Assembly: GCA_026399205.1 (NCBI GenBank)
Contig: JAPLRL010000035.1
Span: 15,310 to 79,309, forward strand
Source: Gammaproteobacteria bacterium
GTDB lineage: Bacteria > Pseudomonadota > Gammaproteobacteria > Legionellales > Legionellaceae
DNA: 64,000 nucleotides
Direction: 5' to 3'
In this document: piece by piece, positions 2,580 to 64,000 of the stretch
How the letters are laid out: the number at the start of each line of letters is the position of its first letter
Position numbering within the stretch: position 1 is the stretch's first letter
The notes under the pieces: generated by a model
What the model saw: the letters and a program-made list of their open reading frames with translations, nothing else
The model's database searches: none
Told to the model about the DNA's origin: nothing
Position numbers and translations under genes: made by a program

Positions 2580-2636
2580 CGTAGGTTGGGCCTTGGCCCA
2601 TCTTTAAATCTTTGTTGGGTCAAGGCCCAACCTACG
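2580..2636. repeat. B-family palindrome (B1)
   Basis: CGTAGGTTGGGCCTTGGCCCA-N14-TTGGGTCAAGGCCCAACCTACG. Confidence 0.85.
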
Positions 2637-2688
2637 GTTTAAAAATTAATCCACTATATTGATATAGAGTAAGCAGAGGAATTCAAGG

Positions 2689-3441
2689 ATGAAACCATGC
2701 AGATGGATTGGGTTTGTTGGGATGTTTTTTTTCTTATTGTCTAGCTCTAATGCGGCGCCATTACCACCATTGGTGATTGCAACAGACGTTTATTCGCCCC
2801 CTTTTGTGATGAGAGGCGCGCATAACCAACTGTATGGCTTTGATATGCAGACCATGAATCAGCTATGTAAAATATTAAATCGAACCTGCGTTTATCATCC
2901 CATGCATTTTTATGAGATTTTCCCCACTATCCTCAACCATCAGGCTGACATCGGCATTGGGGCCATCACCATCACCTTAGCGCGCTCTAAAGTGGTTAGT
3001 TTTTCTATTCCATACTTACTAAGTTATGCGCAATATTTTGCACTCAACAAATGGACTAAAGTCCCGTTTTCCCCCCAACTATTAATAGGAAAAAAAGTCG
3101 GCATACAAACCGGCACGATATTCAAAAAGGCAGTTGAAGAAGCAACAAACTCAGACGTGACGATCGTTGAGTTTAACAGCTTTCATTCACTCATCGAATC
3201 GCTTCAAGATAAAACCACTGATTTCGTGCTTATAGATTCATCTGCGGCTAATTATTGGCAATACCAATCAGATCAAAGCATGATGCCGGTCGGAAAACCC
3301 TTTTTATATGGTTATGGTTTTGGGATTGCAGTCAACCAAGATAACCCTCAGTTGCTTGCGCAAGTGAATTCTGCCTTGTTGGATTATCAAAATAACGGTG
3401 GTTTTCAGAAGGCCTATAATGAGTATATAGAGCAGTTTTAA
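2689..3441 (+). CDS. periplasmic amino-acid ABC transporter substrate-binding protein (SBP_bac_3, ArtJ/HisJ-like)
   Basis: Has a signal peptide (FFFLLSSSNAAP). The family-3 SBP pattern is present: VIATDVYSPPFVM..YGFDMQ..ADIGIGAITITLARSKVVSFSIPY..IDSSAANYW. Confidence 0.8.
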   Translation: MKPCRWIGFVGMFFFLLSSSNAAPLPPLVIATDVYSPPFVMRGAHNQLYGFDMQTMNQLCKILNRTCVYHPMHFYEIFPTILNHQADIGIGAITITLARSKVVSFSIPYLLSYAQYFALNKWTKVPFSPQLLIGKKVGIQTGTIFKKAVEEATNSDVTIVEFNSFHSLIESLQDKTTDFVLIDSSAANYWQYQSDQSMMPVGKPFLYGYGFGIAVNQDNPQLLAQVNSALLDYQNNGGFQKAYNEYIEQF

Positions 3442-3462
3442 TTCACGAAGACGGTAGTGCGT

Positions 3463-3542
3463 CGTCTTGTAAATACGCATCTATATTGTCGTCCCCGCGA
3501 AAGCGGGGATCCATTCCTAAAAGGTAATGGATTTACAAGACG
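3463..3542. repeat. structured intergenic element between convergent genes (single copy in the window)
   Basis: Outer inverted repeat CGTCTTGTAAAT / ATTTACAAGACG. Inner hairpins are CCCCGCGAAAGCGGGG (3493..3508) and CCATT..AATGG. Confidence 0.6.
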
Positions 3543-3582
3543 CGGCAGTAGTCTGGATGGGGGGGCGGTATTATAAAGCGTT

Positions 3583-4912
3583 CTAAACGCCCTTTTGATA
3601 AAAGGCTCCATTCTGTCTAGAAGCCTTCTTCATCTGATACATGGCTTCATCTGCATGTTCAATAAGTTCTTCAGCTAAAAGACTATCCTCTGAGTATATC
3701 GCGACGCCGATACTTAACTCTATTGGTATAGGGTGCCCCTCAATAGTTAATGTTACCCGCCTTGAGTGCTCTAGAATTTTCGCTACGATTTTCAAGGCTG
3801 CTTCTCTTGAAGCAAGATGCGTCAATAAAACAACAAACTCATCGCCGCCAAAGCGTGAGACAACATCCGATTTACGAACTGTTGATTGCAAAAAATGAGC
3901 TATTTCACATAAAAAAGTATCACCTACCAAATGCCCATATCGATCATTAACCGACTTAAAATGATCGACGTCAATAAATAAAACTGCCATAATCTGTGGG
4001 GATCTTGTTGTAGCTAGAATGAATTGATTTAATTTTTCTATAAAAAATCGTCGGTTGGGCAAATGCGTTAATGAATCATAAAAGGCATAATATTTAATTT
4101 GCTGCTCATTCTTTTTTCTTGCGGTAATATCAGAAAAAACAGCGACATGATATGTATTTTTAATCCATGGATCAGTTAATACAGAAATGTTAATCCACTC
4201 CGCAAAAAACTCACCAGACTTTCTACGATTCCAAATTTCACCTTCCCAAAATCCTTTTTCACTCAAATCTGTCCAGAGTTTTTTATAAAATTCTTGTAAC
4301 TACCCAGGTACGTCATCCTGAGCGTAGCGAAGGATCTCAATTTGACAAAGATCTAGCCAAATTCAGGAGGTCCTTCACTGCGTTCAGGATGACGTTTGTT
4401 CGTTGTGAGTGCTAATAAAACAAACTTATCCACTCCACAACCTGAGGAGTTACAAATTCTTTATCTTGTCTTCCAGAACTCAGTAGGCTAGGATTTTTAC
4501 CATATACCTCATCAAAGGAGTAGCCTGTAATATTCGTATATCCCTTATTAATATAAATAATTTTATTATTCTGATCGGTGATGACCACAGCTTCACGAAT
4601 TTCATTCAATGCCAAATAAACCAATTTAAGCAATTTAGAAACGCGCATTTTTTGACGCAAGGCATAAGCGACTATGAACGTAACCCCAAAAAACAAAAAG
4701 ACAATGAGTCCGCGCATCCAAATTTCATTCCTATTATTAGGAATCAAGCTTTGTTGCATCGACCCTGTATGAAAAACAAAGACATGCAGTAACGATTCAC
4801 CAAGCCAATAAATCATCGCCAAGATCAAACCAACCCCTAGCGTTTTTGTATAATAAAATAACCCTTCTTTGCTATCCGATTTATCTAACATTGGATCTCT
4901 TTGCGATATCAC
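3583..4912 (-). pseudogene. membrane-anchored PAS-GGDEF diguanylate cyclase gene split by a 158-bp MITE insertion
   Basis: ORF 4412..4912 encodes TM helices plus the start of a PAS domain (..ITGYSFDEVYGKNPSLLSSGRQDKEF). ORF 3583..4266 encodes the rest of the PAS domain (GFWEGEIWNRRKSGEFF) and a GGDEF domain (RFGGDEFVVLL); its listed start is a TTG. Removing element 4296..4453 plus one 8-bp repeat copy restores a single 387-aa frame. Confidence 0.85.
4296..4453. mobile_element. C-family MITE, long form (C1), inserted in the PAS-GGDEF gene
   Basis: Termini are GTAAC...GTTAC with identical 8-bp direct repeats AAATTCTT at 4288..4295 and 4454..4461. An internal imperfect inverted repeat is present (GTCATCCTGAGCGTAGCGAAGGATC / GGTCCTTCACTGCGTTCAGGATGAC). 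Its first 138 nt are identical to 50785..50922. Confidence 0.85.
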
Positions 4913-4946
4913 TTATTTATTAGCATAGCACTTCCTTTAGCTGAAG

Positions 4947-4987
4947 TAATACCCCACGTCATCCTGAGCGCACGGCTGATCCTCTCA
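4947..4987. repeat. C-family solo arm (C2)
   Basis: GTAATACCCCACGTCATCCTGAGCGCA.. matches the left end of C10. No partner arm is present. Confidence 0.6.
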
Positions 4988-4988
4988 C

Positions 4989-5252: not shown

Positions 5253-5267
5253 GGCGTTGCTTACTCC

Positions 5268-6831: not shown

Positions 6832-6926
6832 TATACTCGAATACCCCCTCCCTAACCCTCCCCCGCGTTCAGCATAGAGATCTTATAACCGTTTCTAGCG
6901 CGGGAGAGGGAACAGATCCGAGTATA
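6832..6926. repeat. D-family repeat (D1)
   Basis: TATACTCGAATACCCCCTCCCTAACCCTCCCCCGCG-N32-CGCGGGAGAGGGAACAGATCCGAGTATA, between thiL and pgpA. Confidence 0.85.
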
Positions 6927-8400: not shown

Positions 8401-8428
8401 TGGGGAAACCCTATTTTATGGTGAATTT

Positions 8429-8448
8429 TGTTGGGCCCTGGCCCAACA
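8429..8448. repeat. B-family core only (B2)
   Basis: TGTTGGGCCCTGGCCCAACA, between glyA and nusB. Confidence 0.5.
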
Positions 8449-8453
8449 CACTT

Positions 8454-9704
8454 TTAGCGCACGGGGTACACCGGAAACTGTTTACACAACGACAAAACCT
8501 CTTGCCTAACCCGCTCAATCACCGCAGGATTGTCATGGTTTTCTAACACTTCATCCATCCAAGTTGCGATGAGTTGCATTTCATGTTCTTTAAACCCGCG
8601 TGTGGTTGCAGCGGGTGTGCCTAGTCTTAATCCGCTGGTCACAAACGGCGACTGAGGATCATCTGGCACGGTATTTTTATTGACCGTCATATGCGCTTGA
8701 TGTAAAACCGCATCAGCAAGTTTACCGGTTAAATTTTTCTTGCGTAAATCAACAACCATCAGGTGGTTTTCAGTGCCACCAGAGACAATATCATACCCTT
8801 TATTTTGAATGCTTTCAGCTAATACCTGCGCATTTTTTAAAACTTGCTGTTGATAGATTTTAAAATCAGGTTTTAATGCTTCTTCAAAAGCAACTGCTTT
8901 GGCCGCAATCACATGCATGAGCGGGCCCCCTTGGCAGCCCGGAAACACACTAGAATTCATTTTTCGCTCAATTTCTTCATTGTGTTTGGCTAAGATCATC
9001 CCACCCCGCGGGCCTCTTAAGGTTTTATGAGTGGTGGTGGTCACGACATCTGCATACGGCAGTGGCGAAGGATATAACCCGACGGCCACAAGCCCCGCCA
9101 CATGCGCCATGTCAACCAATAAATAAGCGCCGACAAGATCCGCAATGTCACGAAACCGCTTCCAATCCAATTGACGAGAATAGGCTGAAAACCCTGCAAT
9201 GATGAGTTGAGGCCGGTGCAGTTTAGCTAACGACTCAATTTCATGATAATCAACCAAACCTGTATCAGGACGCACCCCATAAGAAACCGCGTGATAGAGC
9301 TTACCTGAAAAATTAACAGGACTCCCATGCGTTAAGTGTCCCCCATGAGACAACGCCATCCCTAAAATGGTATCACCCGGCTGAATCAAAGCCATCATGG
9401 CAGCCGCATTCGCAGACGCCCCAGAATGCGGCTGTACATTCACATAATCGGCTTGAAAGAGTTGTTTAGCTCGGTCTATGGCTAGCTTTTCAGCTATATC
9501 AACAAACTCACAACCGCCATAATAACGCTTACCAGGGTAGCCTTCTGCGTATTTGTTGGTTAAAACAGAGCCTTGTGCCTGAAGCACCCGTTGAGTCACA
9601 TAGTTTTCTGAGGCAATCAGCTCAATGTGTTCTTCTTGGCGATTGAGCTCAAGAGACAATGCATTCCATAATGCGGGGTCAAATTCAGATAAGGCTTGTG
9701 ACAT
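8454..9704 (-). CDS. glyA: serine hydroxymethyltransferase
   Basis: 416 aa with [42 protein letters not shown]. Confidence 0.95.
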
Positions 9705-9739: not shown

Positions 9740-9810
9740 AAATCCGAGCCGCGACCGTCAGGGAGCGGAAGTTTAAAACTTCCGCTCCCTGACGGTCGCG
9801 GCTCGGATTT
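9740..9810. repeat. A-family palindrome (A1), 71 bp with perfect 35-nt arms
   Basis: AAATCCGAGCCGCGACCGTCAGGGAGCGGAAGTTT-A-AAACTTCCGCTCCCTGACGGTCGCGGCTCGGATTT. Confidence 0.9.
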
Positions 9811-15000: not shown

Positions 15001-15098
15001 TAGTGGGAACAATGTTTACATTGTTTGTATTGCCAACCGTGTATACTTTTTTGGCGTCGGATCATCGAGTGGATTGCGCTCGAATACCCCCACCCTAA
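12054..15098 (+). CDS. RND efflux permease (AcrB/MdtB-type)
   Basis: 1014 aa with FIKRPVLSSVVSLLILLFG, ..LAIGLVVDDAIVVVENI.., and 12-TM architecture. The last 7 codons and the TAA stop (15096..15098) lie inside repeat D2. Confidence 0.9.
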   Translation: MSMTHVFIKRPVLSSVVSLLILLFGLYSFTQLQVRQFPKLDNTVITVMTAYPGADPDLIAGFITTPLEAAVASAEGIDYMVSSSTQGVSTITLTIKLNFDPQVAFTDVMSKVQQTLNQLPPQAQRPVILKSSDVSTPLMYISLDSHDMTPQQITDYATRVVQPQLQTVDGVAQAQLLGGASYAMRIFLNPIKMAAFHVTPADVSTLLANNNFLTAAGNSKGEYVAINLSAETDLKDPEAFKQLIIRSDGNNRVHLGEVANIFLGSQNYDTSVSFNGKKAVFLAITPTPSANPLTVIAAVRAAFPAITQGFPPSLIGTIVYDATEFIRASIKEVLQTIVEATLIVIAVIFLFLGSPRSVMIPVVTIPLSLIGVCTLMHFLGYSINLLTLLAFVLAIGLVVDDAIVVVENIHRHIEEGMTPYDAALQGAQEITIPVIAMTITLAAVYAPIGFMQGLTGALFKEFAFTLASTVLISGIIALTLSPMMCSQLLKPHTTVSPFMHRIDRFFDNTREHYKQSLHALLNERDIVVLLVAVILIVLPYLYTQTPKETAPEEDQGFFIVASTPPQYATLNYIETYTNAFKKIYTSFPETGHYFIINANQPLSGIVLKPWGERKRSQFKLKAPLQAKLDSIAGLTSYAIIPPSLPGGGTGTPIQFVIKTTSDFQTLYQVSYDLLNQARKSGLFIFSDNSLKFNQPQISLTIQRSKAADLGLDMQKIGSNLAGALSENYVNYFNLKGRSYQVIPQLERRFRATPHALEEIYVQTKHGQMIPMSTFVTPVEKVLPNALTHFQQMNAATIQAVMMPGHTLGEGLTYLTSLAKDALPKGFSYDFAGQSRQFVQEGNALIYAFFLAVIVIFLVLAAQYESYRDPLIILISVPLSICGALIPLNLGLASINIYTQIGLITLIGLISKHGILIVDFANHLQQTKHLSKREAVEEAASIRLRPILMTTAAMVLGVVPLLIASGAGAESRFDIGVVIASGLLVGTMFTLFVLPTVYTFLASDHRVDCARIPPP

Positions 15099-15169
15099 CC
15101 CCCCCCCGCGTTCAGTATATGAGTTTTATAAGCGTTCCGCGCGCGGGAGAGGCGACAGTTCGGAGTATA
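15077..15169. repeat. D-family repeat (D2) overlapping the 3' end of the RND permease gene
   Basis: CGCTCGAATACCCCCACCCTAACCCCCCCCCGCG..GCGCGGGAGAGGCGACAGTTCGGAGTATA. Confidence 0.85.
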
Positions 15170-16046: not shown

Positions 16047-16220
16047 TCAGATCAGTCCCCTCTCCCGCGCGACAAACTTTTGAAAGACGACTATGCTGAA
16101 CGCGGGGGAGGGTTAGGGAGGGGGTACACTGAGTATTGCCCCCTCCCCAACCCTCCCCCGCGAAAAACATCAACATGATATTCAACTTTCTAGCGCGGGA
16201 GAGGGGGTATTCGAGCGTAA
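16047..16220. repeat. D-family dimer (D3+D4)
   Basis: Two units: ..GATCAGTCCCCTCTCCCGCGCG..GCGGGGGAGGGTTAGGGAGGGGG.. followed by CCCCCTCCCCAACCCTCCCCCGCG..CGCGGGAGAGGGGGTATTCGAGCG. Same architecture as 28866..29040. Confidence 0.85.
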
Positions 16221-16247
16221 ATAAAATTAGAAATACTAGGATCCCCA

Positions 16248-19501: not shown

Positions 19502-20776
19502 CTATGCCAAGTGCGGATCGTCATCCCGAGCGAAGCGAGGGATCTCCTTCAAAGTGGCACAGTGCCGCATCAAGAGATCCCTCGCTTCGCTCGGGATGAC
19601 GTGGCTTTTGGAACAATGCTCATTCTTTGGCCGGATTCCCGCGGATCTATTGACGGGATGAACGAAGAACTCCGCATCATCATCATCCAAAATAGACGCA
19701 ACCCATTGTTTTCGACTTAAAGAAAACAGTGGATTTAGCGTCTCTTCAGCGTCTAATGAACTTATCTCCGGCGAAACCTCTAACTCATCATCAATGAGGT
19801 CATCTAATTTATTCCAACTGCATAACTTATTCCAGAGTTTTTTCACACATTGATCTAGTTTTTCCCCTACGATGGCTAATAGCTTATAGGGAATCAGTAA
19901 AATATAACTTAACCTTGCGAACCCTCGAAAACAAAAGTAAGACGCTAGAACCAAGGTATCCAAAAAAACAGCATTTATTTTTTCAAATTTTCGGAAGAAT
20001 TGGTCTTTGCTTTTACACGAAAAACACGCGAGCAACACATTAAATGGATACTGGCAGAGTATGAACACAACTATCACTAATCCTAGTAAACCATCTCTTA
20101 CTCCCAGCAGCATTGATTTTAAATCAGATAAGATGGCTTTAAATGAGCGATAGGCTGAAAAAAGTTTATCTAAACTGGTTTCAGAAAATTCGTGTTTAAA
20201 TTGATCTCGAATTTTTTGTAATGAAAGAGTCACCGCTTGACCAAAAAAATTCAACACGTCTGCGTTCGGATCAGGGGGCAGAAACGAGTTCATCGCGTTA
20301 TATAAGAAGGTTTCAATATAATCAAAGTAATCAATGTCGTTTAATTGAATTGCTCTTACTGTATAATCAGATGCTTCATCTGGAACCAAGTCATTTTTTT
20401 CCGAATCAGTGACAACTTGAAATAAGAAAAAGTTTTTCTTAACTGATCGAGCGATATGATAAAACACGCTGACGAGACAGCGAACGGGAATAAAAAAAAG
20501 TTCAGTAAGGCCCTTTAGTCCACCATATAATTTAAGCAATAGAAGCAAAAATGGATAATAAAAATGGAGGATCAACATGCTCTTGATTCCCCCGCCCCTA
20601 CTCTCTTTATAAAATACGCATTTTAATAAAAGCACAGGAATAAGCATGAGGGCCAACATGATTAACATCAAACTAGCGCCAATGGTTTTTATCAAGCCCA
20701 TGCCTAGATTTTTCAATGCGTGTAAAAGTTCTCTGGGATGGTCGTAAGGGCCTAATTGCATGTGGTCCGCCTTCAT
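19502..20776 (-). CDS. hypothetical multi-pass membrane protein with an acidic C-terminal region; the tail is translated from repeat C3
   Basis: 424-aa ORF with several hydrophobic segments. The last 33 codons (..HVIPSEARDLLMRHCATLKEIPRFARDDDPHLA) read through repeat 19519..19601. Confidence 0.5.
   Translation of the reverse strand: MKADHMQLGPYDHPRELLHALKNLGMGLIKTIGASLMLIMLALMLIPVLLLKCVFYKESRGGGIKSMLILHFYYPFLLLLLKLYGGLKGLTELFFIPVRCLVSVFYHIARSVKKNFFLFQVVTDSEKNDLVPDEASDYTVRAIQLNDIDYFDYIETFLYNAMNSFLPPDPNADVLNFFGQAVTLSLQKIRDQFKHEFSETSLDKLFSAYRSFKAILSDLKSMLLGVRDGLLGLVIVVFILCQYPFNVLLACFSCKSKDQFFRKFEKINAVFLDTLVLASYFCFRGFARLSYILLIPYKLLAIVGEKLDQCVKKLWNKLCSWNKLDDLIDDELEVSPEISSLDAEETLNPLFSLSRKQWVASILDDDDAEFFVHPVNRSAGIRPKNEHCSKSHVIPSEARDLLMRHCATLKEIPRFARDDDPHLA
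19519..19601. repeat. C-family palindromic repeat (C3)
   Basis: CGTCATCCCGAGCGAAGCGAGGGATCTCC-N25-GAGATCCCTCGCTTCGCTCGGGATGACG. It is translated as the C-terminus of ORF 19502..20776. Confidence 0.85.
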
Positions 20777-22527: not shown

Positions 22528-22580
22528 GTCATCCCGAGCGAAGCGAGGGATCTCCTGCAACTACGAGGGGATCCTTCAGC
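22528..22580. repeat. C-family repeat, right arm degraded (C4)
   Basis: GTCATCCCGAGCGAAGCGAGGGATCTCC..GGGGATCCTTCAGC, intergenic. Confidence 0.7.
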
Positions 22581-26150: not shown

Positions 26151-26162
26151 TCACTAAAAAAC

Positions 26163-26211
26163 GTTGGGCCAAGGCCCAACCTACATTTCGTAGGTTGGGC
26201 CTTGGCCCAAC
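26163..26211. repeat. B-family palindrome (B3), inverted arm order, downstream of acnA
   Basis: GTTGGGCCAAGGCCCAACCTAC-ATTTC-GTAGGTTGGGCCTTGGCCCAAC. Confidence 0.85.
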
Positions 26212-26224
26212 AACAACATCATCT

Positions 26225-26888: not shown

Positions 26889-26917
26889 CGTCATCCCGAA
26901 CGCAGTGAGGGATGACG
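26889..26917. repeat. C-family minimal hairpin (C5)
   Basis: CGTCATCCCGAACGCAGTGAGGGATGACG, intergenic. Confidence 0.6.
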
Positions 26918-27682: not shown

Positions 27683-27719
27683 GACTGCTGCCTTAAAAGA
27701 AGTATCTGAAAAAAGGTAT

Positions 27720-27783
27720 CCGAGCCGCGACCGTTAGGGAGCGGAAGTTTTAAAATTTCCGCTCCCTAACGGTCGCGGCTCGG
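27720..27783. repeat. A-family palindrome (A2)
   Basis: CCGAGCCGCGACCGTTAGGGAGCGGAAGTTTTAAAATTTCCGCTCCCTAACGGTCGCGGCTCGG, in a divergent promoter region. Confidence 0.9.
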
Positions 27784-27872
27784 TTAGATTGAGCAAAATA
27801 TTACGAATGGCGTTTCATTATGGAGACCGTAATAGTAATATTACTTTTTCTATGGCATCTACTCAAGAGATT

Positions 27873-28820: not shown

Positions 28821-28865
28821 TGTGTAATTAGGCAACGTCCCTAAAGTTTTCATATATTCCGATCA

Positions 28866-29040
28866 GTCCCCTCTCCCGCGCGAGAAACCCTGATAAAACG
28901 CATAGGCTAAACGCGGGGGAGGGTTAGGGAGGGGGCTACAATAGGCTTGGGCTTTACCCCCTCCCCAACCCTCCCACGCGAAAAACTTCATCATGCTGTT
29001 CAAACTTCTAGCGCGGGAGAGGGGGTATTCGAGCGTAAAA
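28866..29040. repeat. D-family dimer (D5+D6)
   Basis: Same two-unit layout and orientation as 16047..16220, with different loop sequences. Confidence 0.85.
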
Positions 29041-29042
29041 AA

Positions 29043-37422: not shown

Positions 37423-37517
37423 CGTTAAGTCTCCAACTGCGTACAACACTTTGCGAACTATAAAATATTCTAGAGGTAGATACAAGTCTAACACGATGCT
37501 TAACTTTTCACCCGATA

Positions 37518-37588
37518 CAAACCGAGCCGCGACCGTGAGGGAGCGGAAGTGTAAAATTTCCGCTCCCTCACGGTCGCGGCTCGGTTTG
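37518..37588. repeat. A-family palindrome (A3)
   Basis: CAAACCGAGCCGCGACCGTGAGGGAGCGGAA..TTCCGCTCCCTCACGGTCGCGGCTCGGTTTG. Confidence 0.9.
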
Positions 37589-37710
37589 ATTGAGCGAAAA
37601 GTTAAGTATACCCAACGCTAATGAGTTTTCGGATTTTATGCTATTGATTTATGACTCACATATTAGTTATGCTGAAGCCCAGGACGCGACAAATAGATGG
37701 ATCTAAACTC

Positions 37711-39307: not shown

Positions 39308-39394
39308 ATCCGAGCCGCGACCGTTAGGAAGCGGAACATTTAAAACTACTGCGCTCTAATAAAACTTCCGCTCCCTAACGGTCGCGGCTCGGAT
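39308..39394. repeat. A-family, long variant (A4)
   Basis: The arms are as in A1. An extra ~20 nt in the loop looks like a partial duplicate of the right arm (AAAACTACTGCGCTCT / AAAACTTCCGCTCCCT). Confidence 0.85.
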
Positions 39395-40985: not shown

Positions 40986-41551
40986 GCACTCTTCCTGCGG
41001 CACGTCATCCCGAGCGTTCCATGCGTCATCCCGAGCGTAGCGAGGGATCTCCACCCAGTAGCAGGAGATCCCTCGCTACGCTCGGAATGACGTGGAAAAC
41101 GTGCAAGTCATTCGCAATGACCACCGGTTTATTTTTACTCGCCTTTTCCGGCTGGTACTTTGGCAAATCAACCCCACCGCTTTTAAATCAACAGACCCTC
41201 ATGCATCAAGTCGATGCCATCATGACGGATCTCCATTTTTATGAATTTGATGAGCGTGGCCAGCTCAGTAAACACATGGTAGCCGCTAAAATGGAGCACA
41301 TGCCATTTAATAATCAATTTTTTTTGACTCAGGTTATCCTCACGCATCATCAGTCTGAAAATAAAACAAGCATGCATACCGATGCGTTAACCTATCTGCC
41401 CAAAACCGCCCTTGCATTTACCGATTCGCCTGTTATCTTTGAGCAAGCTGAGCAACGCATAGAGTCAAAAGGAATGCAGGCGAATTTAAATACCAATCAA
41501 ATTAAGCTCAATCATGCACGTGCAACTATTAAGCCAAAAGATGAGGCGTAG
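40982..41551 (+). CDS. lptC: LPS export protein LptC, with a repeat-derived N-terminal segment
   Basis: The ATG overlaps the kdsC stop (ATGA). It has a TM anchor (TTGLFLLAFSGWYFG) and an OstA-like body. Codons 8-37 (RHPERSMRHPERSEGSPPSSRRSLATLGMT) are repeat C6. An alternative start at MTTGLF (about 41117) cannot be excluded. Confidence 0.75.
   Translation: MSTLPAARHPERSMRHPERSEGSPPSSRRSLATLGMTWKTCKSFAMTTGLFLLAFSGWYFGKSTPPLLNQQTLMHQVDAIMTDLHFYEFDERGQLSKHMVAAKMEHMPFNNQFFLTQVILTHHQSENKTSMHTDALTYLPKTALAFTDSPVIFEQAEQRIESKGMQANLNTNQIKLNHARATIKPKDEA
41003..41092. repeat. C-family repeat inside the lptC reading frame (C6), 90 nt, left terminus duplicated
   Basis: CGTCATCCCGAGCGTTCCATG + CGTCATCCCGAGCGTAGCGAGGGATCTCC..GGAGATCCCTCGCTACGCTCGGAATGACG. 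The 21-bp duplication encodes RHPERSM. Confidence 0.85.
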
Positions 41552-41616
41552 GTTGGGCCTTGGCCCAACAACGATATTACGCAACACCACAATGTTGGGC
41601 CAAGGCCCAACCTACG
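41547..41616. repeat. B-family palindrome (B4) spanning the lptC/lptA junction
   Basis: CGTAGGTTGGGCCTTGGCCCAAC-N24-GTTGGGCCAAGGCCCAACCTACG. It contains the lptC stop TAG (41549..41551) and the candidate lptA ATG (41592). Confidence 0.9.
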
Positions 41617-42831: not shown

Positions 42832-42919
42832 AATCCGAGCCGCGACCGTCAGGAAGCGGAAATTTTAAACTCCCGCTCTCCAATAAAACTTCCGCTCCCT
42901 AACGGTCGCGGCTCGGATT
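42832..42919. repeat. A-family, long variant (A5), between convergent lptB and relA
   Basis: Same architecture as A4 (..TTAAACTCCCGCTCTCCAATAAAACTTCCGCTCCCT..). Confidence 0.85.
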
Positions 42920-47759: not shown

Positions 47760-47779
47760 GGCTTCCCTCTCTGGATCAT

Positions 47780-47847
47780 ATCCGAGCCGCGACCGTTAGG
47801 GAGCGGAAATTTTAAAACTTCCGCTCCCTAACGGTCGCGGCTCGGAT
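47780..47847. repeat. A-family palindrome (A6)
   Basis: ATCCGAGCCGCGACCGTTAGGGAGCGGAAATTTTAAAACTTCCGCTCCCTAACGGTCGCGGCTCGGAT, between dusA and yciO. Confidence 0.9.
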
Positions 47848-47848
47848 T

Positions 47849-50784: not shown

Positions 50785-50922
50785 GTAACTACCCAGGTAC
50801 GTCATCCTGAGCGTAGCGAAGGATCTCAATTTGACAAAGATCTAGCCAAATTCAGGAGGTCCTTCACTGCGTTCAGGATGACGTTTGTTCGTTGTGAGTG
50901 CTAATAAAACAAACTTATCCAC
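50785..50922. mobile_element. C-family MITE, long form (C7); right end diverged or truncated
   Basis: Identical base for base to 4296..4433 by my side-by-side reading. It diverges after ..CTTATCCAC. It lies immediately upstream of the Mth938-like gene. Confidence 0.8.
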
Positions 50923-51310: not shown

Positions 51311-51431
51311 GTCCAGCGGCGACTCGGAACGTTCTTCACGTTCTAACGAGCTACGAGCCACCGGTGGACACGTCGCCTGAAAGTCTTCATTAACCTGCAG
51401 ACTCATCGCTAGGCTCCTTTGTCCACCCTAC
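51311..51431. repeat. E-family repeat, partial (E1)
   Basis: It ends in GGCTCCTTTGTCCACCCTAC. Its core CGAGCCACCGGTGGACACGTCGCC is the reverse complement of the E2 core. Confidence 0.75.
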
Positions 51432-52573
51432 AGTAACTTCTTCGCATCGTCTTCATCATTCTCGGGGGCACTCGATTGCCCAGGGCTACTTGTTGGTGTC
51501 GCCTGCGTGAAAAAAGTAGCAGGAATTGCCACTGTCGAGTTTTTTAGAGATACGAATTGAACGTCAAGTTGACTCACCAATTCGCCAAGCTCAGTCATCT
51601 GTTCTTCATCTTTATTTTTATTTTGTCTGATTCTTTTGAGTTTTGTGTGACCCGCATCTTTTCGTGCCTGCAACATTGTTAATTTTTTTTCATCAGGGGT
51701 GGTCGCCTGTTGTTCGGCTGCGATTGTTTGATCGAGCTTAGCTAACATTCTGTTTAGGGCCCACTCTTCTCTTGTCCTGATATCTAACACCAATTGAATC
51801 ACTATATGTTCACGGCAAAGTTGGCTGCGTAAGGTTGAATAATCCTCAGTTGAAAGTGACGAATGTGTATTGATTTCACGATCAGCAACGACTAGTAATT
51901 TCTCTAGACACTGAATACGGGACTGATCAATTTCTATCTCAGTTCCCATTTTTATCACTTGTGCTTCAGGCGATTGTGTACGAATCATCGCTTTTTGTAG
52001 ATCGAGCATCCCAATGGTGTGATGATAGTGTTCAATTTCCCTTAAAGCTGCTTCTGTGCTCATCGGCACACTTGAATTCGTAGCATCTAATGGGTCCGTT
52101 ATTTCTCGGCGTAAAGGTGAGCTGGGATCTGATTCTTCTCGAGTATGGCGCGCGAATAGACCCATTATTTCTGTTACCATCGTCTTCAATTTAAATTGAA
52201 CATTAATTTTATGAACCAGATCTTCTAGTTTCTGAATTTGTTTTCTACATAGCGCTGTTTTTTCATCACCCTGAGCTAACCCGCTGTTTAATACTTTTTC
52301 AGTTTCAACCAAAACAGCTAGCTCACGATAGAGTTGTATTCTCAAATGCCCAAAAAAAGCCAAATCGTTCATGTGTTCAGGAGGTGATTTTTGTTTGGTC
52401 AGGTCAAATTCACCTTTCACGATGGCCTGTTCTGCAGAGAAACATAGACGATCTAGATATTCAGCACGCGCGTGCCTCGATTGAGGGGTTTGTTTTCGAA
52501 GATCGATCTGTGCAATGTGTTCATGCAAGGTTTCGATTGTTTTTAATATTTGTGTATTTATCATATATAGCAA
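51428..52573 (-). CDS. hypothetical coiled-coil protein
   Basis: 381-aa ORF with long helical heptad-like stretches and an acidic tail (..APENDEDDAKKLL). The stop codon TAG (51428..51430) lies in the terminal repeat of E1. Confidence 0.5.
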   Translation of the reverse strand: MLYMINTQILKTIETLHEHIAQIDLRKQTPQSRHARAEYLDRLCFSAEQAIVKGEFDLTKQKSPPEHMNDLAFFGHLRIQLYRELAVLVETEKVLNSGLAQGDEKTALCRKQIQKLEDLVHKINVQFKLKTMVTEIMGLFARHTREESDPSSPLRREITDPLDATNSSVPMSTEAALREIEHYHHTIGMLDLQKAMIRTQSPEAQVIKMGTEIEIDQSRIQCLEKLLVVADREINTHSSLSTEDYSTLRSQLCREHIVIQLVLDIRTREEWALNRMLAKLDQTIAAEQQATTPDEKKLTMLQARKDAGHTKLKRIRQNKNKDEEQMTELGELVSQLDVQFVSLKNSTVAIPATFFTQATPTSSPGQSSAPENDEDDAKKLL

Positions 52574-53139: not shown

Positions 53140-53210
53140 GATCTACCCCCTCTCCCGCGAATTAAATCAAGACAATATTCACCCTTCCGGCGCCGGCGAG
53201 GGGGCAGATC
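53140..53210. repeat. D-like variant (D8)
   Basis: GATCTACCCCCTCTCCCGCG..GGCGCCGGCGAGGGGGCAGATC, between uspA and bioD. Confidence 0.55.
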
Positions 53211-57267: not shown

Positions 57268-57400
57268 ATTCTCAACCTCTCACTCGAACTAACCGAGCCG
57301 CGACCGTTAGGGAGCGGAAATTTTAAAAGAACACGAAAGTATTAAAACTTCCGCTCCCTAACGGTCGCGGCTCGGATTGTATCGCGTGAAAGTTGAGAAT
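57268..57400. promoter_or_regulatory. 16-18 bp inverted repeat in the bioB/bioA divergent region, arms separated by repeat A7 (candidate split operator)
   Basis: The left arm is ATTCTCAACCTCTCACTC (57268..57285). The right arm is GCGTGAAAGTTGAGAAT (57384..57400), whose reverse complement is ATTCTCAACTTTCACGC. About 14 of 17 positions match. Confidence 0.3.
57293..57375. repeat. A-family, long variant (A7), in the bioB/bioA divergent region
   Basis: CCGAGCCGCGACCGTTAGGGAGCGGAAATTTTAAAAGAACACGAAAGTATTAAAACTTCCGCTCCCTAACGGTCGCGGCTCGG. Confidence 0.9.
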
Positions 57401-58780: not shown

Positions 58781-58949
58781 GTAGGGTGGACAAAGGAGCC
58801 CCACTATAAATTTTTCGGTTTCTGGAATCTTCTGGGCGACGTGTCCACCGGTGGCTCGGCGGTGGCTCAGTGCCGCCCATGGTGGGCACGTCGCCCGGAA
58901 GATCCCAGTCAACAGAAAGCCCTGTGCGGGGCTCCTTTGTCCACCCTAC
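58781..58949. repeat. E-family repeat, full length, 169 bp (E2)
   Basis: Has 20-bp terminal inverted repeats GTAGGGTGGACAAAGGAGCC / GGCTCCTTTGTCCACCCTAC. An internal hairpin is present (GGCGACGTGTCCACC..GGTGGGCACGTCGCC). It lies between bioA and coaE. Confidence 0.85.
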
Positions 58950-58978: not shown

Positions 58979-59716
58979 ATGTATTGTATCGGCTTAACTG
59001 GGCGCATCGCTAGTGGCAAAAGCACTGTTGCTCGCTTTTTCCAAGACCTTGGCGTTCCTGTCATTAGCGCCGATCAACTCAATCACGGCCTATTACAAAA
59101 AGACACCCCCGCATATCAGGCTATCTTGCAACATTTTGGCACAAAAGTATTGGGTGACGATCAGAGCATCAATAAAGCTTTTTTAAAAGAAAAATTAATA
59201 CACCATCCTCAAGAGCGCCAATGGCTTGAAGCCTTATTACATCCCATGATTCAAGCTTTAATTCAACAGCAGATTCAAGCCTTGGTCGCGCCTTACTGTG
59301 TGATCGAAATCCCCCTGAAAATCAAAAAAACCGACTACCCCTATTTAGATCGCATTTTACTGATCGATTGTGATGAATCCACTCAATTACAGCGCCTGAT
59401 GGAGCGAGATAAAGTATCTCAGGCTAATGCGCATGCATTGATACAGATTCAAGACAGTAGAGAAGCCTATCGTCGCACAGGAGATGACATCATTGATACA
59501 TCAGGTCATCCCACAGAAGTACGTCATCCCACAGAAGTACGTCATCCCACAGAAGTACGTCATCCCGCAGAAGTACGTCATCCCGAGCATAGCGAGGGAT
59601 CTCCTCATATAAGCACAGTGCCAATCGAAAGGAGATCCCTCACTATGTTCGGGATAACAAAAATAATCAAAAAATTACACGCTCAATATTTACAATACGC
59701 AAGACAGAAGTCATGA
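58979..59716 (+). CDS. coaE: dephospho-CoA kinase with an in-frame repeat-derived insertion of about 51 aa
   Basis: Shows IGLTGRIASGKST (P-loop), ..LLHPMI.. and ..GDDIIDTSG. Then comes the insertion [HPTEVRx3, HPAEVR, HPEHSEGSPHISTVPIERRSLTMFGIT]. Then comes KIIKKLHAQYLQYA, matching the E. coli CoaE C-terminus ..DDVIDNNG..RLHAHYLQLA. Confidence 0.85.
   Translation: MYCIGLTGRIASGKSTVARFFQDLGVPVISADQLNHGLLQKDTPAYQAILQHFGTKVLGDDQSINKAFLKEKLIHHPQERQWLEALLHPMIQALIQQQIQALVAPYCVIEIPLKIKKTDYPYLDRILLIDCDESTQLQRLMERDKVSQANAHALIQIQDSREAYRRTGDDIIDTSGHPTEVRHPTEVRHPTEVRHPAEVRHPEHSEGSPHISTVPIERRSLTMFGITKIIKKLHAQYLQYARQKS
59505..59576 (+). repeat. 18-bp tandem repeat x4 (GTCATCCCACAGAAGTAC) abutting repeat C8 inside coaE
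   Basis: There are three identical units plus one with a single A-to-G change. Each unit begins with the C-family terminal octamer GTCATCCC and encodes the in-frame hexapeptide repeat (HPTEVR x3, HPAEVR). Confidence 0.9.
59577..59658. repeat. C-family repeat inside coaE (C8)
   Basis: GTCATCCCGAGCATAGCGAGGGATCTCC..GCACAGTGCC..GGAGATCCCTCACTATGTTCGGGATAAC. It shares the central GCACAGTGCC with C3. Confidence 0.85.
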
Positions 59717-63500: not shown

Positions 63501-63724
63501 TTATCTGTGTGTGCGAGTATCTCCTCAATCCATTGACGCCGTAGAGAAAGCTCCCCCTGATCATTATATTCGTCTAGAGAAAAAATACGAAAACCACCTG
63601 CCAGGAACGAAACGGATCGATGGCGCAAATGCCGCCAGACTAGAACATTCTCGGGTGCTGGATGGGTGATGAGTTGCTGATATAAGGTTTTCTTGCCGTT
63701 GTATTCGATGAAAGGAGTGGGCAT
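60539..63724 (-). CDS. large hypothetical protein (1061 aa) with a central coiled-coil and a repeat-derived Pro-rich linker
   Basis: Long uninterrupted ORF. I recognise no domain. Residues ..RSRHPEQSSESPDEGRVANEGSSVAPPPPPSLPP.. correspond to a degenerate C-family repeat. Confidence 0.6.
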   Translation of the reverse strand: MPTPFIEYNGKKTLYQQLITHPAPENVLVWRHLRHRSVSFLAGGFRIFSLDEYNDQGELSLRRQWIEEILAHTDKALPAPFVYKLHMQERLSKGIYRHSSWVFGNTCMVAEKNYMETCIYTEADYVGFHCPTESYPYIDSHPFYTLVTTHWVSDPHNFSYYSTHIEKRKTKKHSNTWMADIFEFKNMSSNLILMSSHGRITPHLKNQKITDPQGELITYTPSNVDHVLPDVVHLGLKIRTEYRDGLILEGTLFPLRYKGALKEGRICGPATIHSPGRIKSICFNEAGQAISIGTLRFVDPLTQENETPVDKPGCGFDMIMPNGIVFTAVIYPDTYESMCRMASRTFGLEAFLPMLSLLKPSHLLLTALLSKIPYEMYKHLMREVFPTPQARRLTPNLSHLSTGFRQYPGLFHLEMMQGEVPEDYIALLPEFYLGGHTGQLETYSHKILGYKKSPQRIYNIDFYALLSLFKQVTLSLEAKNLRRIDLYQELLLYSLSLKAYLNLYPEVYDFILLSQKVNLLSTKKPRSLQLSSQDKILDLTYRQVERIFPTLLLRLGAIYGLYQSYRERWPECHWKWALDALKQFSDENIKARDKLIQAQVDEEEQARSELYRIEAQDIQQGYAAGYADQFASIQSTEKKQRKVNSEAYDKDVRSISAVKRSLEERHQTQVKLQREQERENIVGNEKSLRVSLTDEQTTQFQGMVKQKTSDVQAIRFRFSQFKAQTCMMAESDSAHQLIDQEEQASWLALECWSNKERFQAENIEQPRARSRHPEQSSESPDEGRVANEGSSVAPPPPPSLPPTESNTPQFFQPASRSPQVISYDRYGIPTDLPDIFFVKNVTDYPVLQRLSIVERTFLITCYREHLQAYLAGAPLDMENRQCVPRLQPLMVPLKSFADLVGGWLWRTRQFGECLSKTQVDDNMLQCFPRALDALPTPQLHSIADMKLFVEFYQYYFYFTTLEVIQTYRLPLVGDDVAEIQNWAWYHAQYVSEPRAGLLMSLYQGQADVLTLFPQLLASYFANPEDCMRFQQGLHEAAEKYVETPIVVMPEVSANPERCNLS
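61340..61414. repeat. degenerate C-family repeat inside the 1061-aa ORF (C9)
   Basis: The minus strand reads CGTCATCCGGAGCAGAGCTCGGAATCTCC, against consensus CGTCATCCCGAGCGTAGCGAGGGATCTCC (about 6 mismatches in 29). The partner arm is weaker (GGAGCTCCGTCGCTCCGCC). Confidence 0.55.
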
Positions 63725-63833
63725 AAGGGTGTTTATTTTATAATTTGTAAGACTAAATAAATTCTACGTGAATTTATTTTGATCTTCAATGCTAAACACG
63801 GCTGTCGCATTATAATTTGATCAATCTGCTGTA

Positions 63834-63855
63834 GTAGGTTGGGCCTTGGCCCAAC
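63834..63855. repeat. B-family solo arm (B5)
   Basis: GTAGGTTGGGCCTTGGCCCAAC, 2 bp upstream of the left target duplication of C10 (10 bp upstream of the element itself). Confidence 0.7.
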
Positions 63856-63865
63856 AATCTGATTA

Positions 63866-63979
63866 GTAACTCCCCACGTCATCCTGAGCGCCAGCGAAGG
63901 ATCTCCTGCTAATTAGCACATTGCTAGCTAGGGGGGATCCTTCGCTGGCGCTCAGGATGACGTGTACCTGGGTAGTTAC
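63866..63979. mobile_element. C-family MITE, short palindromic form (C10)
   Basis: GTAACTCCCCACGTCATCCTGAGCGCCAGCGAAGGATC ... GATCCTTCGCTGGCGCTCAGGATGACGTGTACCTGGGTAGTTAC. It is flanked by identical 8-bp direct repeats TCTGATTA (63858..63865 and 63980..63987). Confidence 0.85.
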
Positions 63980-64000
63980 TCTGATTATTAGATTTAGATT

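Follow-up and report, generated by a model that had tools for sequence, protein, structure and literature searches.

Small palindromic repeats of several kinds in the intergenic DNA of a Legionellales genome

Why does a stretch of Legionellales DNA carry a small palindromic repeat in almost every sizeable intergenic gap and encode no transposase? The stretch analyzed, hereafter the window, is 64,000 nucleotides long and belongs to a Legionellales genome of 2.3 Mb in 86 contigs. Very probably the window shows what intergenic DNA normally looks like in a repeat-rich Legionellales genome: at least four kinds of non-autonomous mobile DNA that differ in mechanism have accumulated, and an enzyme encoded elsewhere acts in trans on each. 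The anatomy of the repeats, their copy numbers, their target duplications, the identity between repeat terminus and insertion sequence (IS) and the bracketing of enzyme genes by repeats were observed directly, and from these sequence relationships we infer that the candidate enzymes move their repeats.

About 30 repeat copies from five to six families were located in the window (Table 1), and 22 of the 25 intergenic gaps longer than 100 nt in an ORF-based map carry a copy, in agreement with a preliminary description of the window which stated that nearly every gap above 100 bp contains one. Two of the gaps listed there as empty (20777-20946 and 31821-31945) are indeed repeat-free, and a third (10380-10763) is without a full copy but includes a 28-nt fragment. 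The repeats, being small, palindromic, non-coding and dispersed across the genome, are present where they had been placed, and the family counts agree: seven copies of family A (the third with its core from 37520), five loci of family B (GTAGGTTGGGCC; the last at 63833), about ten loci of the GTCATCC family including fragments (two counted from 41025 and 59577, and one more at 61384), and eight units of the G-run family (CCCCTCCC; the second units of its two doublets at 16136 and 28955), plus a fragment at 10692. Family E, given as two copies, was found as three units, the doublet consisting of 58781 and 58879. A sixth family of two copies was not recovered; a single CGTC-type hairpin is present at 3488-3512. 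The perfect 35-nt arms ascribed to family A exist at 9741-9809, whereas the perfect stems of other copies are 29 bp. Several gene ends in the window are repeat-derived, as had been proposed, and one gene is split. These repeats are far beyond chance; 16-mers occurring at least twice cover 991 window positions, compared with an average of 3.8 in shuffled windows, and the hairpins of A, B and GTCATCC show folding z-scores of -8 to -13. A repeated gene at 20903 is a paralogous gene rather than a small repeat, with no inverted ends where the sequence was inspected.

Table 1. Repeats and a repeated gene in the window (positions of the window).
Feature	Positions	Strand	Remarks
Family A palindrome	9741..9809		arms ATCCGAGCCGCGACCGTNAGGGAGCGGAA
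Family A palindrome	27717..27785		divergent promoter gap
Family A palindrome	37506..37609		extended outer arms; core 37520-37586
Family A, long-loop variant	39308..39394		87 nt
Family A, long-loop variant	42832..42919		lptB-relA gap
Family A palindrome	47779..47848		29-bp perfect stem; -41.3 kcal/mol, z = -12.3
Family A, long-loop variant	57291..57378		bioB/bioA divergent gap
Family B, GTAG REP doublet (REPIN)	2580..2636		GTAGGTTGGGCCTTGGCCCAAC; z = -8.4
Family B, degenerate single unit	8427..8458		69% identity
GTAG REP doublet	26160..26222		immediately 3' of acnA
GTAG REP doublet	41547..41616		lptC/lptA junction
Left 60-nt arm of RAYT-less REP-armed element	63796..63863	+	right arm C44:79404-79460 (~window 64095-64151), just beyond window end
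GTCATCC MITE	4296..4453		158 nt; GTAAC..GTTAC ends; splits TM-PAS-GGDEF gene
GTCATCC terminal fragment	4945..4971		
GTCATCC core hairpin	19518..19604		82-nt class, CGTC start; no GTAAC ends or duplication; z = -12.2
GTCATCC partial element	22528..22577		
GTCATCC arm fragment	26889..26913		
GTCATCC core hairpin	41003..41095		additional partial arm; within 5' part of lptC ORF
Second copy of 4296 MITE subfamily	50785..50922		no right terminus; 100% identity, 139 nt (50784-50922 = 4295-4433)
Tandem terminus copies and GTCATCC core hairpin	59505..59660		4 tandem 18-nt terminus copies (GTCATCCCACAGAAGTAC), then hairpin; both within coaE ORF
GTCATCC MITE	63866..63979		114 nt; 8-bp duplication TCTGATTA; within REP-armed element
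G-run single unit	6843..6922		CCCCTCTCCCGCGCG..CGCGGGGGAGGGTTAGGGAGGGGG
G-run unit	15088..15163		over stop of AcrB-type gene
G-run inverted doublet	16047..16223		
G-run inverted doublet	28859..29041		rod fold; z = -8.2
G-run unit	34575..34657		
G-run unit, diverged	53148..53206		61% identity
Family E single unit	51354..51432	-	77 nt; GTAG-tagged on minus strand (GTAGGGTGGACAAAGGAGCC..)
Family E inverted doublet	58781..58949		REPIN-like rod, GTAG tags at both outer ends; -68.5 kcal/mol, z = -14.7
CGTC/TGTC-tagged REP hairpin (Ssn-related-motif type)	3488..3512	+	TGTCGTCCCCGCGAAAGCGGGGATCCA; within repeated stretch 3455-3518; 20 units of type
1.6-kb gene, 502 aa	20903..22504	-	precomputed family PF27266; four paralogous copies; ~90% DNA identity

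In the whole genome, the repeats occupy at least 770 loci. With nhmmer, 116 loci of family A, 229 of GTCATCC, 155 of G-run, 237 of E and at least 26 of GTAG-REP were detected, covering 63 kb (2.7% of the genome) and filling about 18% of the intergenic DNA as defined by a crude ORF map, made with no gene finder, which also supplied the genome-wide gene coordinates used below.

The GTCATCC family is a genuine MITE, with arms matching an IS66-family element and with 8-bp target duplications. The element is resident in at least nine copies, its ends being identical to the MITE arms, and its terminus GTAACTCCCCACGTCATCCCGAGCGCAGCGAGGGATCTCC, the same as the MITE arm, was detected at eight contig ends plus three others. 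A full copy (contig C14:9826-12235) encodes DUF6444, zf-IS66 and DDE_Tnp_IS66 together with a small GIY-YIG ORF of the Ssn nuclease type. The longer GTCATCC copies have GTAAC..GTTAC ends and 8-bp target duplications; among 30 MITEs with strict termini, the flanking duplication is perfect in 20 and has at most one mismatch in 23, compared with none for the next 8 nt outward as a control. Equal BLAST score and identity are shared by 17 copies, and 23 copies in the genome, including that at 63866, are exactly 114 nt long. The MITE at 4296 is flanked by the duplication AAATTCTT (4288-4295 and 4454-4461), the halves of the gene that it splits match Pfam GGDEF and PAS, and in-silico excision of 4296-4453 with one duplicate yields an intact PAS-GGDEF ORF of 387 aa. 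The MITEs carry the terminal inverted repeats (about 45 nt) of the IS66-family element and would be mobilized by its DDE transposase with formation of the 8-bp duplications; the inner part of the inverted repeat is a CGTC-tagged hairpin of the kind that Ssn-type nucleases recognize on single-stranded DNA. Core hairpins, beginning at the CGTC tag, form a second population; 126 of them exist genome-wide without GTAAC ends, and no target duplication was found in their aligned copies. The core hairpins lack the ends that an IS66 transposase would be expected to need and the duplications that it would leave, so that an IS66 route is less certain for this population. In the 245-residue product of the coaE ORF bearing one of these repeats, the CoaE domain stops at residue 176.

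Family A, represented genome-wide by about 116 loci with 203 arms, is associated with a different enzyme. Its arms bracket a Y1 gene of 178 aa (contig C58:26389-26922), and the same bracketing is seen for a Y1 gene with 82% amino-acid identity in a second proteobacterial MAG and for one with 49% in a Planctomycetota MAG, where the arms are identical at 25 of 27 positions. Exact copies of the 27-nt arm were found in both Planctomycetota and Acidobacteriota. The protein motifs NHVH, WT and YVIHEQ, like the CCGA foot, fit Class 3 (Quentin et al. 2018, PMC6006769). Family A is assigned to a Class 3 Y1 (HUH) transposase as its hairpin partner.

Families B and E are GTAG-tagged REP units, most of them paired as inverted doublets (REPINs), and belong to the type of hairpin that RAYT (Y1 HUH) transposases process as single strands. 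The B unit occurs 116 times in the genome, and 79 inverted doublets of E were counted. PF01797 has seven matches in the genome. One RAYT gene, on contig C72, is flanked by GTAG REPs and reaches 187 bits with the model NF047646 (REP-associated tyrosine transposase), for which the cut-off is 80 bits. The B REP flanks RAYT copies on contigs C21 and C20, and the arms of the REP-armed element at 63796 also bracket these genes. This RAYT type occupies at least five loci, which is unusual for RAYTs; the C21 copy carries a frameshift, and the remaining four either are truncated at contig ends or match only in part. Family E carries the GTAG tag and the stem foot GGTGGA..TCCACC, both common to the C72 REP. 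Because E was not found flanking any RAYT gene in the genome, its link with the C72 gene is drawn solely from this common 10-nt foot.

For the G-run family, no candidate enzyme was found in the genome. The family gave no match in 20 relatives, one of the same genus included, and family E gave none in the same relatives at a very strict cut-off; in the nearest relative AcnA is 73% identical and synteny is lost. At 16 contig ends the IS terminus CACTGCCATTAAGTTAAG was detected, each time inside a G-run arm, and a full 1.4-kb copy of this IS in a relative encodes a DDE_Tnp_1 protein. The G-run family is an orphan confined to this species and the preferred landing site of an IS4-family element.

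No window ORF matched a transposase family, so that the reported lack of a transposase is true within the window, but the genome does encode such enzymes outside it. Of 172 contig ends, 153 run into sequence that has further copies in the genome; 105 of these ends fall into groups with a common terminus of about 140 nt, and an IS terminus was identified in all 16 end groups examined (79 ends), with at least eight kinds of collapsed IS in the genome. The contig of the window itself terminates in an IS110-family gene, 4.8 kb beyond the window. The window is free of IS as an artefact of assembly, contigs being broken at multi-copy IS.

It is unlikely that the repeats are mainly structural or regulatory elements serving the host (as terminators, mRNA stabilizers or sites for Ssn-type control over single-stranded DNA that enters the cell) and kept by selection, as opposed to selfish mobile DNA. 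Families A, G-run and E form strong hairpins and 80-88% of their copies are intergenic; roles in termination and mRNA stability have been reported for REPs, and Ssn/NTS pairs modulate transformation in Neisseria. Family A is, however, as frequent in divergent promoter gaps (three of seven in the window) as at 3' ends, and about one-fourth of GTCATCC copies lie within ORFs, one gene being disrupted. The lack of G-run and E matches in the relatives argues against an old conserved function, and the identical copies with target duplications point to recent transposition. The view of the preliminary description, that all six families are MITE-like, i.e., classical MITEs derived by deletion from IS with DDE transposases, is quite improbable. 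This is true of exactly one family, GTCATCC; the collapsed IS could include further donors, and small REP-like copies in Coxiella burnetii have been read as truncated QMITE2. In contrast, no flanking duplication was found for A, B, E or G-run in 26-190 aligned copies per family, A and B bracket Y1 genes, and the tag of B and E, GTAG, is the one typical for substrates of RAYTs, in agreement with the assignment of A, B and E to Y1/HUH (RAYT-type) hairpin systems. The proposed search for full-length IS with matching termini succeeded for GTCATCC, but none of the 16 end groups fits the ends of A, B, E or G-run. A window-local duplication or a chimeric metagenome bin has hardly any probability: the share of gaps with a copy is higher in the window (22/25) than genome-wide (392/729) and arms of two families exactly match distant phyla, but the census refutes the restriction to the window considered in the preliminary description, every family being present on 24-66 of 86 contigs with copies between housekeeping genes, the genome is 99.98% complete and 0.02% contaminated, and the cross-phylum matches are limited to enzyme-recognition arms, the distribution of family A being already published.

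The favored reading, a mixture of known small mobile DNA kinds with enzymes elsewhere, therefore makes this a dense but largely ordinary landscape; each repeat class is already published, the composite of IS66 and Ssn hairpin being the least ordinary part. Coxiella burnetii, a host of the same order, carries QMITE1, QMITE2 and REPs targeted by IS1111 (Wachter et al. 2018, PMC5896051), its QMITEs being full-size with inverted ends and 7-9-bp direct repeats or small, REP-like and without both. Full MITEs likewise stand alongside small versions here, a likeness of architecture, and in both genomes the repeats are hot-spots for IS insertion and overlap gene 3' ends. With 2.7% of the genome made up of repeats here and 0.93% in C. 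burnetii (at least 770 copies compared with 123), the density is about threefold that of C. burnetii; the families are more numerous, an IS donor (IS66 family) is identified, and the repeat-targeting IS belongs to the IS4 family instead of IS1111. Rickettsia palindromic elements are also palindromic repeats of a host-associated bacterium, some in frame in genes (here coaE and lptC), but only a minority of copies here lie within genes and most families have a candidate enzyme.

As in REP/REPIN-RAYT systems (Nunvar 2010; Bertels & Rainey 2011, PMC3116915; Di Nocera 2013, PMC3733652), a GTAG tag precedes a hairpin in B, E and an off-window family G; the repeats, mostly inverted doublets, are intergenic and present in hundreds, and RAYT genes have the REP on their flanks. 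The differences are that the RAYT of B lies IS-like within 60-nt inverted arms at its several loci instead of as one domesticated copy, and that the E unit is unusually long, forms a weak hairpin alone and has no flanked RAYT. With the Class 3 TnpA-Y1 'REPtron-like' group, known from Planctomycetes, Acidobacteria and Proteobacteria (PMC6006769), the family A enzyme shares its length of 178 aa, the NHVH, W[TA] and YV[VI]xEQ-type motifs and a position between atypical high-copy hairpins with a CnGA foot; the small Legionellales host and the mostly perfect 68-nt palindromes are different, and the letter-identical arm across phyla, with protein identity down to 49%, goes beyond that description. 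Finally, the sections of Chenal et al. (2025, PMC11893778) used here describe Ssn nucleases as single-domain GIY-YIG genes of about 100 aa beside CGTC-tagged NTS/SRM hairpins, equivalent to CGTC-tagged REPs and dRS3, and mention no IS66 association. The same arrangement is seen here, foreign homologues of the GIY-YIG gene having canonical CGTCATTCCGGCGAAAGCCGGAATCCA hairpins 5-9 nt past the stop codon, and one Ssn-type hairpin is located in the window at 3488-3512. Unlike the systems in those sections, the nuclease gene here is carried within an IS66-family transposon, and the CGTC hairpin (5-bp stem, 11-nt loop) is part of the terminal inverted repeat of the transposon and of its MITEs.

The repeats of the window split, in our verdict, into one IS66-derived MITE, GTAG-type REP/REPIN sequences with RAYT genes, Class 3 Y1 hairpins, Ssn-type CGTC hairpins and one orphan family. 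The window spans C44:15310-79309 of a genome assembly of 2.316 Mb in 86 contigs (44.2% G+C, 99.98% complete, 0.02% contaminated). The best matches of the AcnA encoded in the window were found in Legionella (71%), followed by MAGs of Legionellaceae and Coxiellaceae, indicating that the host is a divergent member of the Legionellales. Against a same-genus genome AcnA showed 73% identity and synteny disappeared after two genes, which ruled out a comparison of empty sites, no nucleotide-level alignment being possible.

A repeat finder, BLAST of the window against the genome and profile searches were all concordant with the list of repeats in the preliminary description. The window contains seven copies of family A, five loci of the GTAG REP family B (GTAGGTTGGGCC), about 10 loci of the GTCATCC family C including fragments, eight units and one fragment of the G-run family D (CCCCTCCC), and three units of E. 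The 16-mers repeated within the window occupied 991 positions; in shuffled sequences the mean was 3.8. Nearly every gap had been described as filled, and on an ORF-based map a copy was indeed present in 22 of the 25 gaps longer than 100 nt, the exceptions having been named correctly. Units of A, B and C form strong single-strand hairpins (z = -8 to -13), while D and E fold weakly as single units and form long rods as inverted doublets (z = -8.2 and -14.7). The only Rfam entry above threshold in the window was tRNA-Ser.

Genome-wide, nhmmer detected 116 loci of A, 229 of GTCATCC, 155 of the G-run family, 237 of E, at least 26 GTAG-REP doublets and nine loci of F, spread across 24-66 contigs and occupying 63 kb in all (2.7% of the genome). 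Counted by fuzzy patterns, arms numbered 203 for A and 133 for the G-run family, and units 116 for the GTAG REP and 270 for E. On a crude ORF map the families account for about 18% of the intergenic DNA and a copy is present in 392 of 729 gaps longer than 100 nt; on the same map, 80-88% of the copies of A, the G-run family and E fall between genes and about a quarter of the GTCATCC copies lie within ORFs. Since every family is dispersed through the genome, the repeats are not confined to the window, and a local duplication was ruled out.

A search for IS elements with termini matching those of a repeat family was positive for GTCATCC, the partner being an IS66-family element. The IS terminus starting with GTAACTCCCCACGTCATCCCGAGCGCAGCGAGGGATCTCC is common to eight contig ends, and three more carry the other end of the element, with 40 nt in common; the MITE arm GTAACTCCCCACGTCATCCCGAGCGCAGCGAGGGATCTCC is identical at these 11 IS-bearing contig ends and in the one full, diverged copy on contig C14. 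This copy encodes PF20042 (DUF6444), PF13005 (zf-IS66) and PF03050 (DDE_Tnp_IS66, E = 1e-36), its transposase ORF being broken by nested MITEs, and carries a 96-aa GIY-YIG nuclease gene just within its right end. The GIY-YIG C-terminus is 100% identical at the eight contig ends, indicating at least nine copies of the element. Among the MITEs with GTAAC..GTTAC ends, 23 are exactly 114 nt long. The flanking 8-bp duplications of MITEs with strict termini were perfect in 20 of 30 cases and had at most one mismatch in 23 of 30, against 0/29 for the offset control (the next 8 nt outward), and the targets are AT-rich; the target-site duplication of IS66 is typically 8 bp. A single BLAST score and identity are shared by 17 GTCATCC copies, and two window copies are identical over 139 nt. 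Judged by termini and duplications, the long-form copies are true MITEs of a resident IS66-family element. The term MITE-like, as applied earlier to all families, holds for the GTCATCC long form and is not supported for A, B and E, which appear to be of the Y1/RAYT hairpin types, or for the orphan D.

A second GTCATCC population consists of 126 hairpins of 67 or 82 nt, starting at the CGTC tag, without the GTAAC ends and without duplications. Visual inspection suggests that the loop in the 82-nt class is composed of the two IS-internal sequences adjoining the arms. Of 31 related genomes, 12 contained the GTCATCC family, and in one of them dozens of contig ends carry the identical 42-nt terminus.

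As had been proposed, several gene ends in the window are repeat-derived. At least one gene (PAS-GGDEF) is split by a MITE: in-silico excision of positions 4296-4453 together with one AAATTCTT rebuilt an intact 387-aa TM-PAS-GGDEF ORF. For annotation, small ORFs and extended termini in this genome are not to be trusted. GTCATCC hairpins also lie within the lptC and coaE ORFs without introducing a stop, reminiscent of Rickettsia palindromic elements. Next to one GTCATCC hairpin is a tandem array, and such arrays, with units of 16-19 nt, start with the terminal bases of the element directly beside them; similar arrays adjoin the A arms flanking a Class 3 Y1 gene in two phyla. Repeated nicking, or template switching, may have left these arrays.

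In the 96-aa IS66-borne protein, residues 5-77 match the Pfam GIY-YIG domain, and homologues at 46-60% identity have canonical NTS-like hairpins alongside (NTS and SRM are the CGTC-tagged partner hairpins of Ssn, a GIY-YIG single-strand nuclease). The arm beside the IS66-borne gene, CGTC-ATCCC-GAGCGCAGCGA-GGGAT-CTCC, has the tag and the AT-start stem, but a 5-bp stem and an 11-nt loop; the NTS consensus is CGTCATTCCCGCGMAVGCGGGAATCYRG (Chenal et al. 2025, PMC11893778). The candidate single-strand substrate arm for the protein is CGTCATCCCGAGCGCAGCGAGGGATCTCC. Elsewhere in the genome, CGTC-tagged REP hairpins bracket or follow GIY-YIG paralogues, those on C42 being bracketed by canonical CGTCGTCCCGCGGCTTGTCCGCGGGATCC. 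The inner arm CGTCATCCCGAGCGNAGCGAGGGATCTC recurs without a mismatch in Gemmatimonadota, Acidobacteriota, Alpha-, Beta- and Gammaproteobacteria, Planctomycetota and others. Using a strict detector on 77 foreign loci of nuclease homologues, a CGTC/TGTC hairpin was located within 130 nt past the stop in 14 (usually at 5-9 nt), a mirror-orientation hairpin upstream in 17, and both in 10, against a background of 0.01 per equivalent window and 0/77 in shuffled segments. At 15 of 80 nuclease loci, and at none of 69 controls, exact inverted repeats of 14 nt or longer formed a bracket.

CGTC REPs were described as lacking a dedicated transposase by Di Nocera et al. 2013 (PMC3733652). The comparison of foreign loci supports an association of GIY-YIG nucleases with these hairpins, but the idea of the nuclease as the missing partner is not new: the pairing of GIY-YIG nuclease and NTS/SRM hairpins has been published as the Ssn family (Chenal et al. 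2025, PMC11893778). A nuclease gene inside an IS66 transposon with hairpin-bearing inverted repeats is not described in the sections of that paper covered here. The same IS66/GIY-YIG composite is conserved in other Legionellales, with three copies in a gammaproteobacterial MAG and further occurrences in Legionella nagasakiensis and Fluoribacter gormanii. One tentative reading of this arrangement, which we consider possible rather than probable, is that the IS66-family element is a hybrid of two mobility systems, in which a captured Ssn-type GIY-YIG gene has its CGTC recognition hairpin as the inner part of the terminal inverted repeats, so that Ssn sites would be spread through the genome as DDE-transposed MITEs. 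The nuclease may then act on the hairpins of both the IS66 element and the MITEs, and may generate the 126 core-only hairpins and the 18-nt terminus tandem amplifications in coaE. If functional, the composite would join two mobility mechanisms so far described separately.

Family A is associated with a different enzyme. A 178-aa Y1 protein encoded on C58 is bracketed by A arms, which start with ATCCGAGCC and have the foot CCGA. The protein reached the cut-off of neither the IS200 nor the RAYT model of NCBIfam, and its motifs are SNHVHLV, RWTRH and YVIHEQ. Class 3 TnpA-Y1 proteins are characterized by a length of 178 aa and the motifs NHVH, W[TA] and YV[VI][AENY]EQ, by flanking atypical hairpins with a CnGA foot in up to about 600 copies, and by hosts among Planctomycetes, Acidobacteria and Proteobacteria (Quentin et al. 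2018, PMC6006769); the H at position 4 of the third motif falls outside this published set. A arms bracket the Y1 gene in three genomes of two phyla, with homologues from another proteobacterial MAG at 82% identity and from a Planctomycetota MAG at 49%, in the latter of which 25 of the 27 arm positions are identical. Exact matches to the 27-nt A arm CCGAGCCGCGACCGTNAGGGAGCGGAA occur in Legionella species, Planctomycetota, Acidobacteriota and Chloroflexota. By gene, motifs and foot, family A is a new hairpin member of Class 3 TnpA-Y1.

Seven Y1_Tnp matches were obtained in the genome. Contig C72 carries an intact 173-aa RAYT (187 bits against NF047646, cut-off 80 bits), flanked by the 28-unit REP family GTAGGGTGGATTAGGGCCGCCAGGCCCGTAATCCACC, which lies outside the window. 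Family B carries a 5' GTAG and an imperfect palindrome, GTAGGTTGGGCCTTGGCCCAAC, and the RAYT genes on C21 and C20 are bracketed by 60-nt arms containing this REP. The B-associated RAYT reached 79.5 bits against NF047646 as a half-length fragment, and tblastn located this type at five loci with 95-100% identity, inside the 60-nt inverted arms. As a rule a RAYT is present once; no such single copy, retained vertically with its REP family, was found for B, and its five loci indicate IS-like behaviour. The same armed element, without the gene and with a MITE inserted, extends past the right end of the window. Family E has a 77-nt unit, which on one strand starts with GTAGGGTGGACA and ends with TGTCCACC, and forms 79 inverted doublets. 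Since no RAYT gene flanked by E was found in the genome, we infer the link of E to a RAYT from the GTAG tag and stem foot that it has in common with the C72 REP. By tag and stem, B is of the GTAG REP/REPIN type and E probably so.

The D units run from CCCCTCTCCCGCGCG to CGCGGGGGAGGGTTAGGGAGGGGG, and inverted doublets, the outer arms of which show little conservation, account for about one-third of the loci. The searches yielded neither a target duplication nor an enzyme gene for D, none of the 16 IS-terminus groups read matched its ends, and none of 20 relatives, among them the same-genus genome, contains the family. The genes between inverted D copies, which we take to be ygfZ-like, aroE, glnA, ldhA-like and umuC-like, were rejected as cargo or enzyme because they resemble ordinary housekeeping genes without mutual homology, with the exception of one 259-aa ORF. 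The arm GGGGGAGGGTTAGGGAGGGGG has four G-runs 1-3 nt apart, contains TTAGGG and is a textbook G-quadruplex-forming pattern, with 133 such arms genome-wide, the other strand being the C-run. An IS terminus, CACTGCCATTAAGTTAAG, was found at 16 contig ends, always within the G-run arm and at two positions 11 nt apart. From these junctions we infer an 11-bp duplication of AGGGTTAGGGA, no single insertion being assembled across it. In a relative, the full 1.4-kb copy has perfect 19-bp inverted ends, CACTGCCATTAAGTTAAGG, and encodes a 452-aa DDE_Tnp_1 protein of the IS4 type.

The window had been described as free of transposases. This was correct for its ORFs, none of which matched a transposase family, but not for the genome, in which multi-copy IS elements sit at contig breaks. 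Only a handful of repeats longer than 400 nt were assembled, and 153 of the 172 contig ends terminate in sequence repeated elsewhere in the genome. A common stretch of about 140 nt, which we take to be about the word length of the assembler, places 105 ends in groups; the 16 largest of these, comprising 79 ends, were read and represent the termini of no fewer than eight distinct multi-copy elements. Because such elements break contigs, a contig-internal window cannot hold them by construction, and the lack of IS in such a window of a short-read assembly is uninformative on the genome. The contig of the window itself, C44, stops 4.8 kb past the window in the start of a gene, MNEITILGIDLAKNTFQ, presumably of the IS110 family.

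Another multi-copy element, with ends ..GTTGCATCAWAAG.AATGTTACC and an interior absent from the assembly, abuts or interrupts B REP hairpins (C72_R, C39_R) and A palindromes (C37_L, C7_L). The IS of contig-end groups 4 and 6 sits within hairpins of REP and family A; two small contigs, C37 and C54, gave no clue to its type, both containing unique genes only. An IS200/IS605-type tnpA on C4 (126 bits against PF01797) has one in-frame TAA, the adjoining ORF being by its look presumably an N-terminal fragment of tnpB. The 502-aa ORF of the window was considered as a hidden transposase and rejected as not IS-like: no Pfam or NCBIfam match, no PDB relative and, where the sequence was read, no inverted ends were found. 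Its 1.6-kb repeat has three more full copies with about 90% DNA identity (C56, C79 and C42) and a fragment on C23, and homologues number only 23 in a set of 5.8 billion proteins, all tagged PF27266. We treat it as a paralogous gene family.

Locations of genes, repeats and mobile elements (C, contigs of this genome; L, sequences from other genomes; _L and _R, left and right contig ends)
Feature	Location	Remarks
Housekeeping genes	window	gdh, glyA, nusB, thiL, pgpA, acrAB-type efflux, acnA, fabG-like, kdsD, lptCAB, relA, tyrS/trpS-type, recJ, bio operon, coaE, zapD
CGTC-type hairpin	window 3488-3512	one copy
PAS-GGDEF gene split by MITE	window 3583-4912	
G-run arm GGGGGAGGGTTAGGGAGGGGG	window 16101-16124, 28912-28935, others	
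502-aa ORF	window 20947-22455	1.6-kb repeat with short flanks, window 20903-22504
GTCATCC hairpin in lptC	window 41003-41095	5' part
GTCATCC hairpin in coaE	window 59505-59660	after CoaE residue 176
Tandem array GTCATCCCACAGAAGTAC x4	window 59505-59576	adjoins GTCATCC hairpin
IS66-family element	C14:9826-12235	one diverged full copy
Class 3 Y1 gene	C58:26389-26922	
Tandem arrays beside A arms	C58:27040-27125, 27225-27270; L121:6250-6320	
RAYT gene	C72:47212-47730	
B-flanked RAYT loci	C20:1-330, C21:6840-7085, C66:23205-23351, C6:17716-17826, C80:47754-47864	C20 cut by contig end; C21 frameshifted
Armed element without RAYT	window right end to C44:79460	
IS4-family termini	C23_R, C27_R, C45_R, C58_L, C59_R, C86_L, C9_L, C20_R, C24_L, C2_R, C32_L, C48_L, C60_L, C16_R, C69_L, C7_R	
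IS4-family full copy	L381:150-1571	
Ends of GTTGCATCAWAAG/AATGTTACC element	C22_L, C42_L, C47_L, C72_R, C74_L, C7_L, C11_R, C22_R, C32_R, C37_L, C39_R	
IS200/IS605-type tnpA	C4:697-1583	
Second piece identical to C4 tnpA-region element	C26:25745-26068	at contig end

One small host-associated genome thus contains an IS66 MITE, two or three GTAG REP/RAYT systems, Class 3 Y1 and Ssn-type hairpins, and an orphan family serving as an IS landing pad. These side-by-side systems represent a compact natural test bed for coexistence and mutual targeting. Every kind except the orphan D has a described counterpart. The landing of the IS4-family element in D is paralleled by that of IS1111 in QMITE2/REP of Coxiella burnetii (PMC5896051), the QMITEs of which occupy 0.93% of the genome as against 2.7% for the repeats here, about three times denser.
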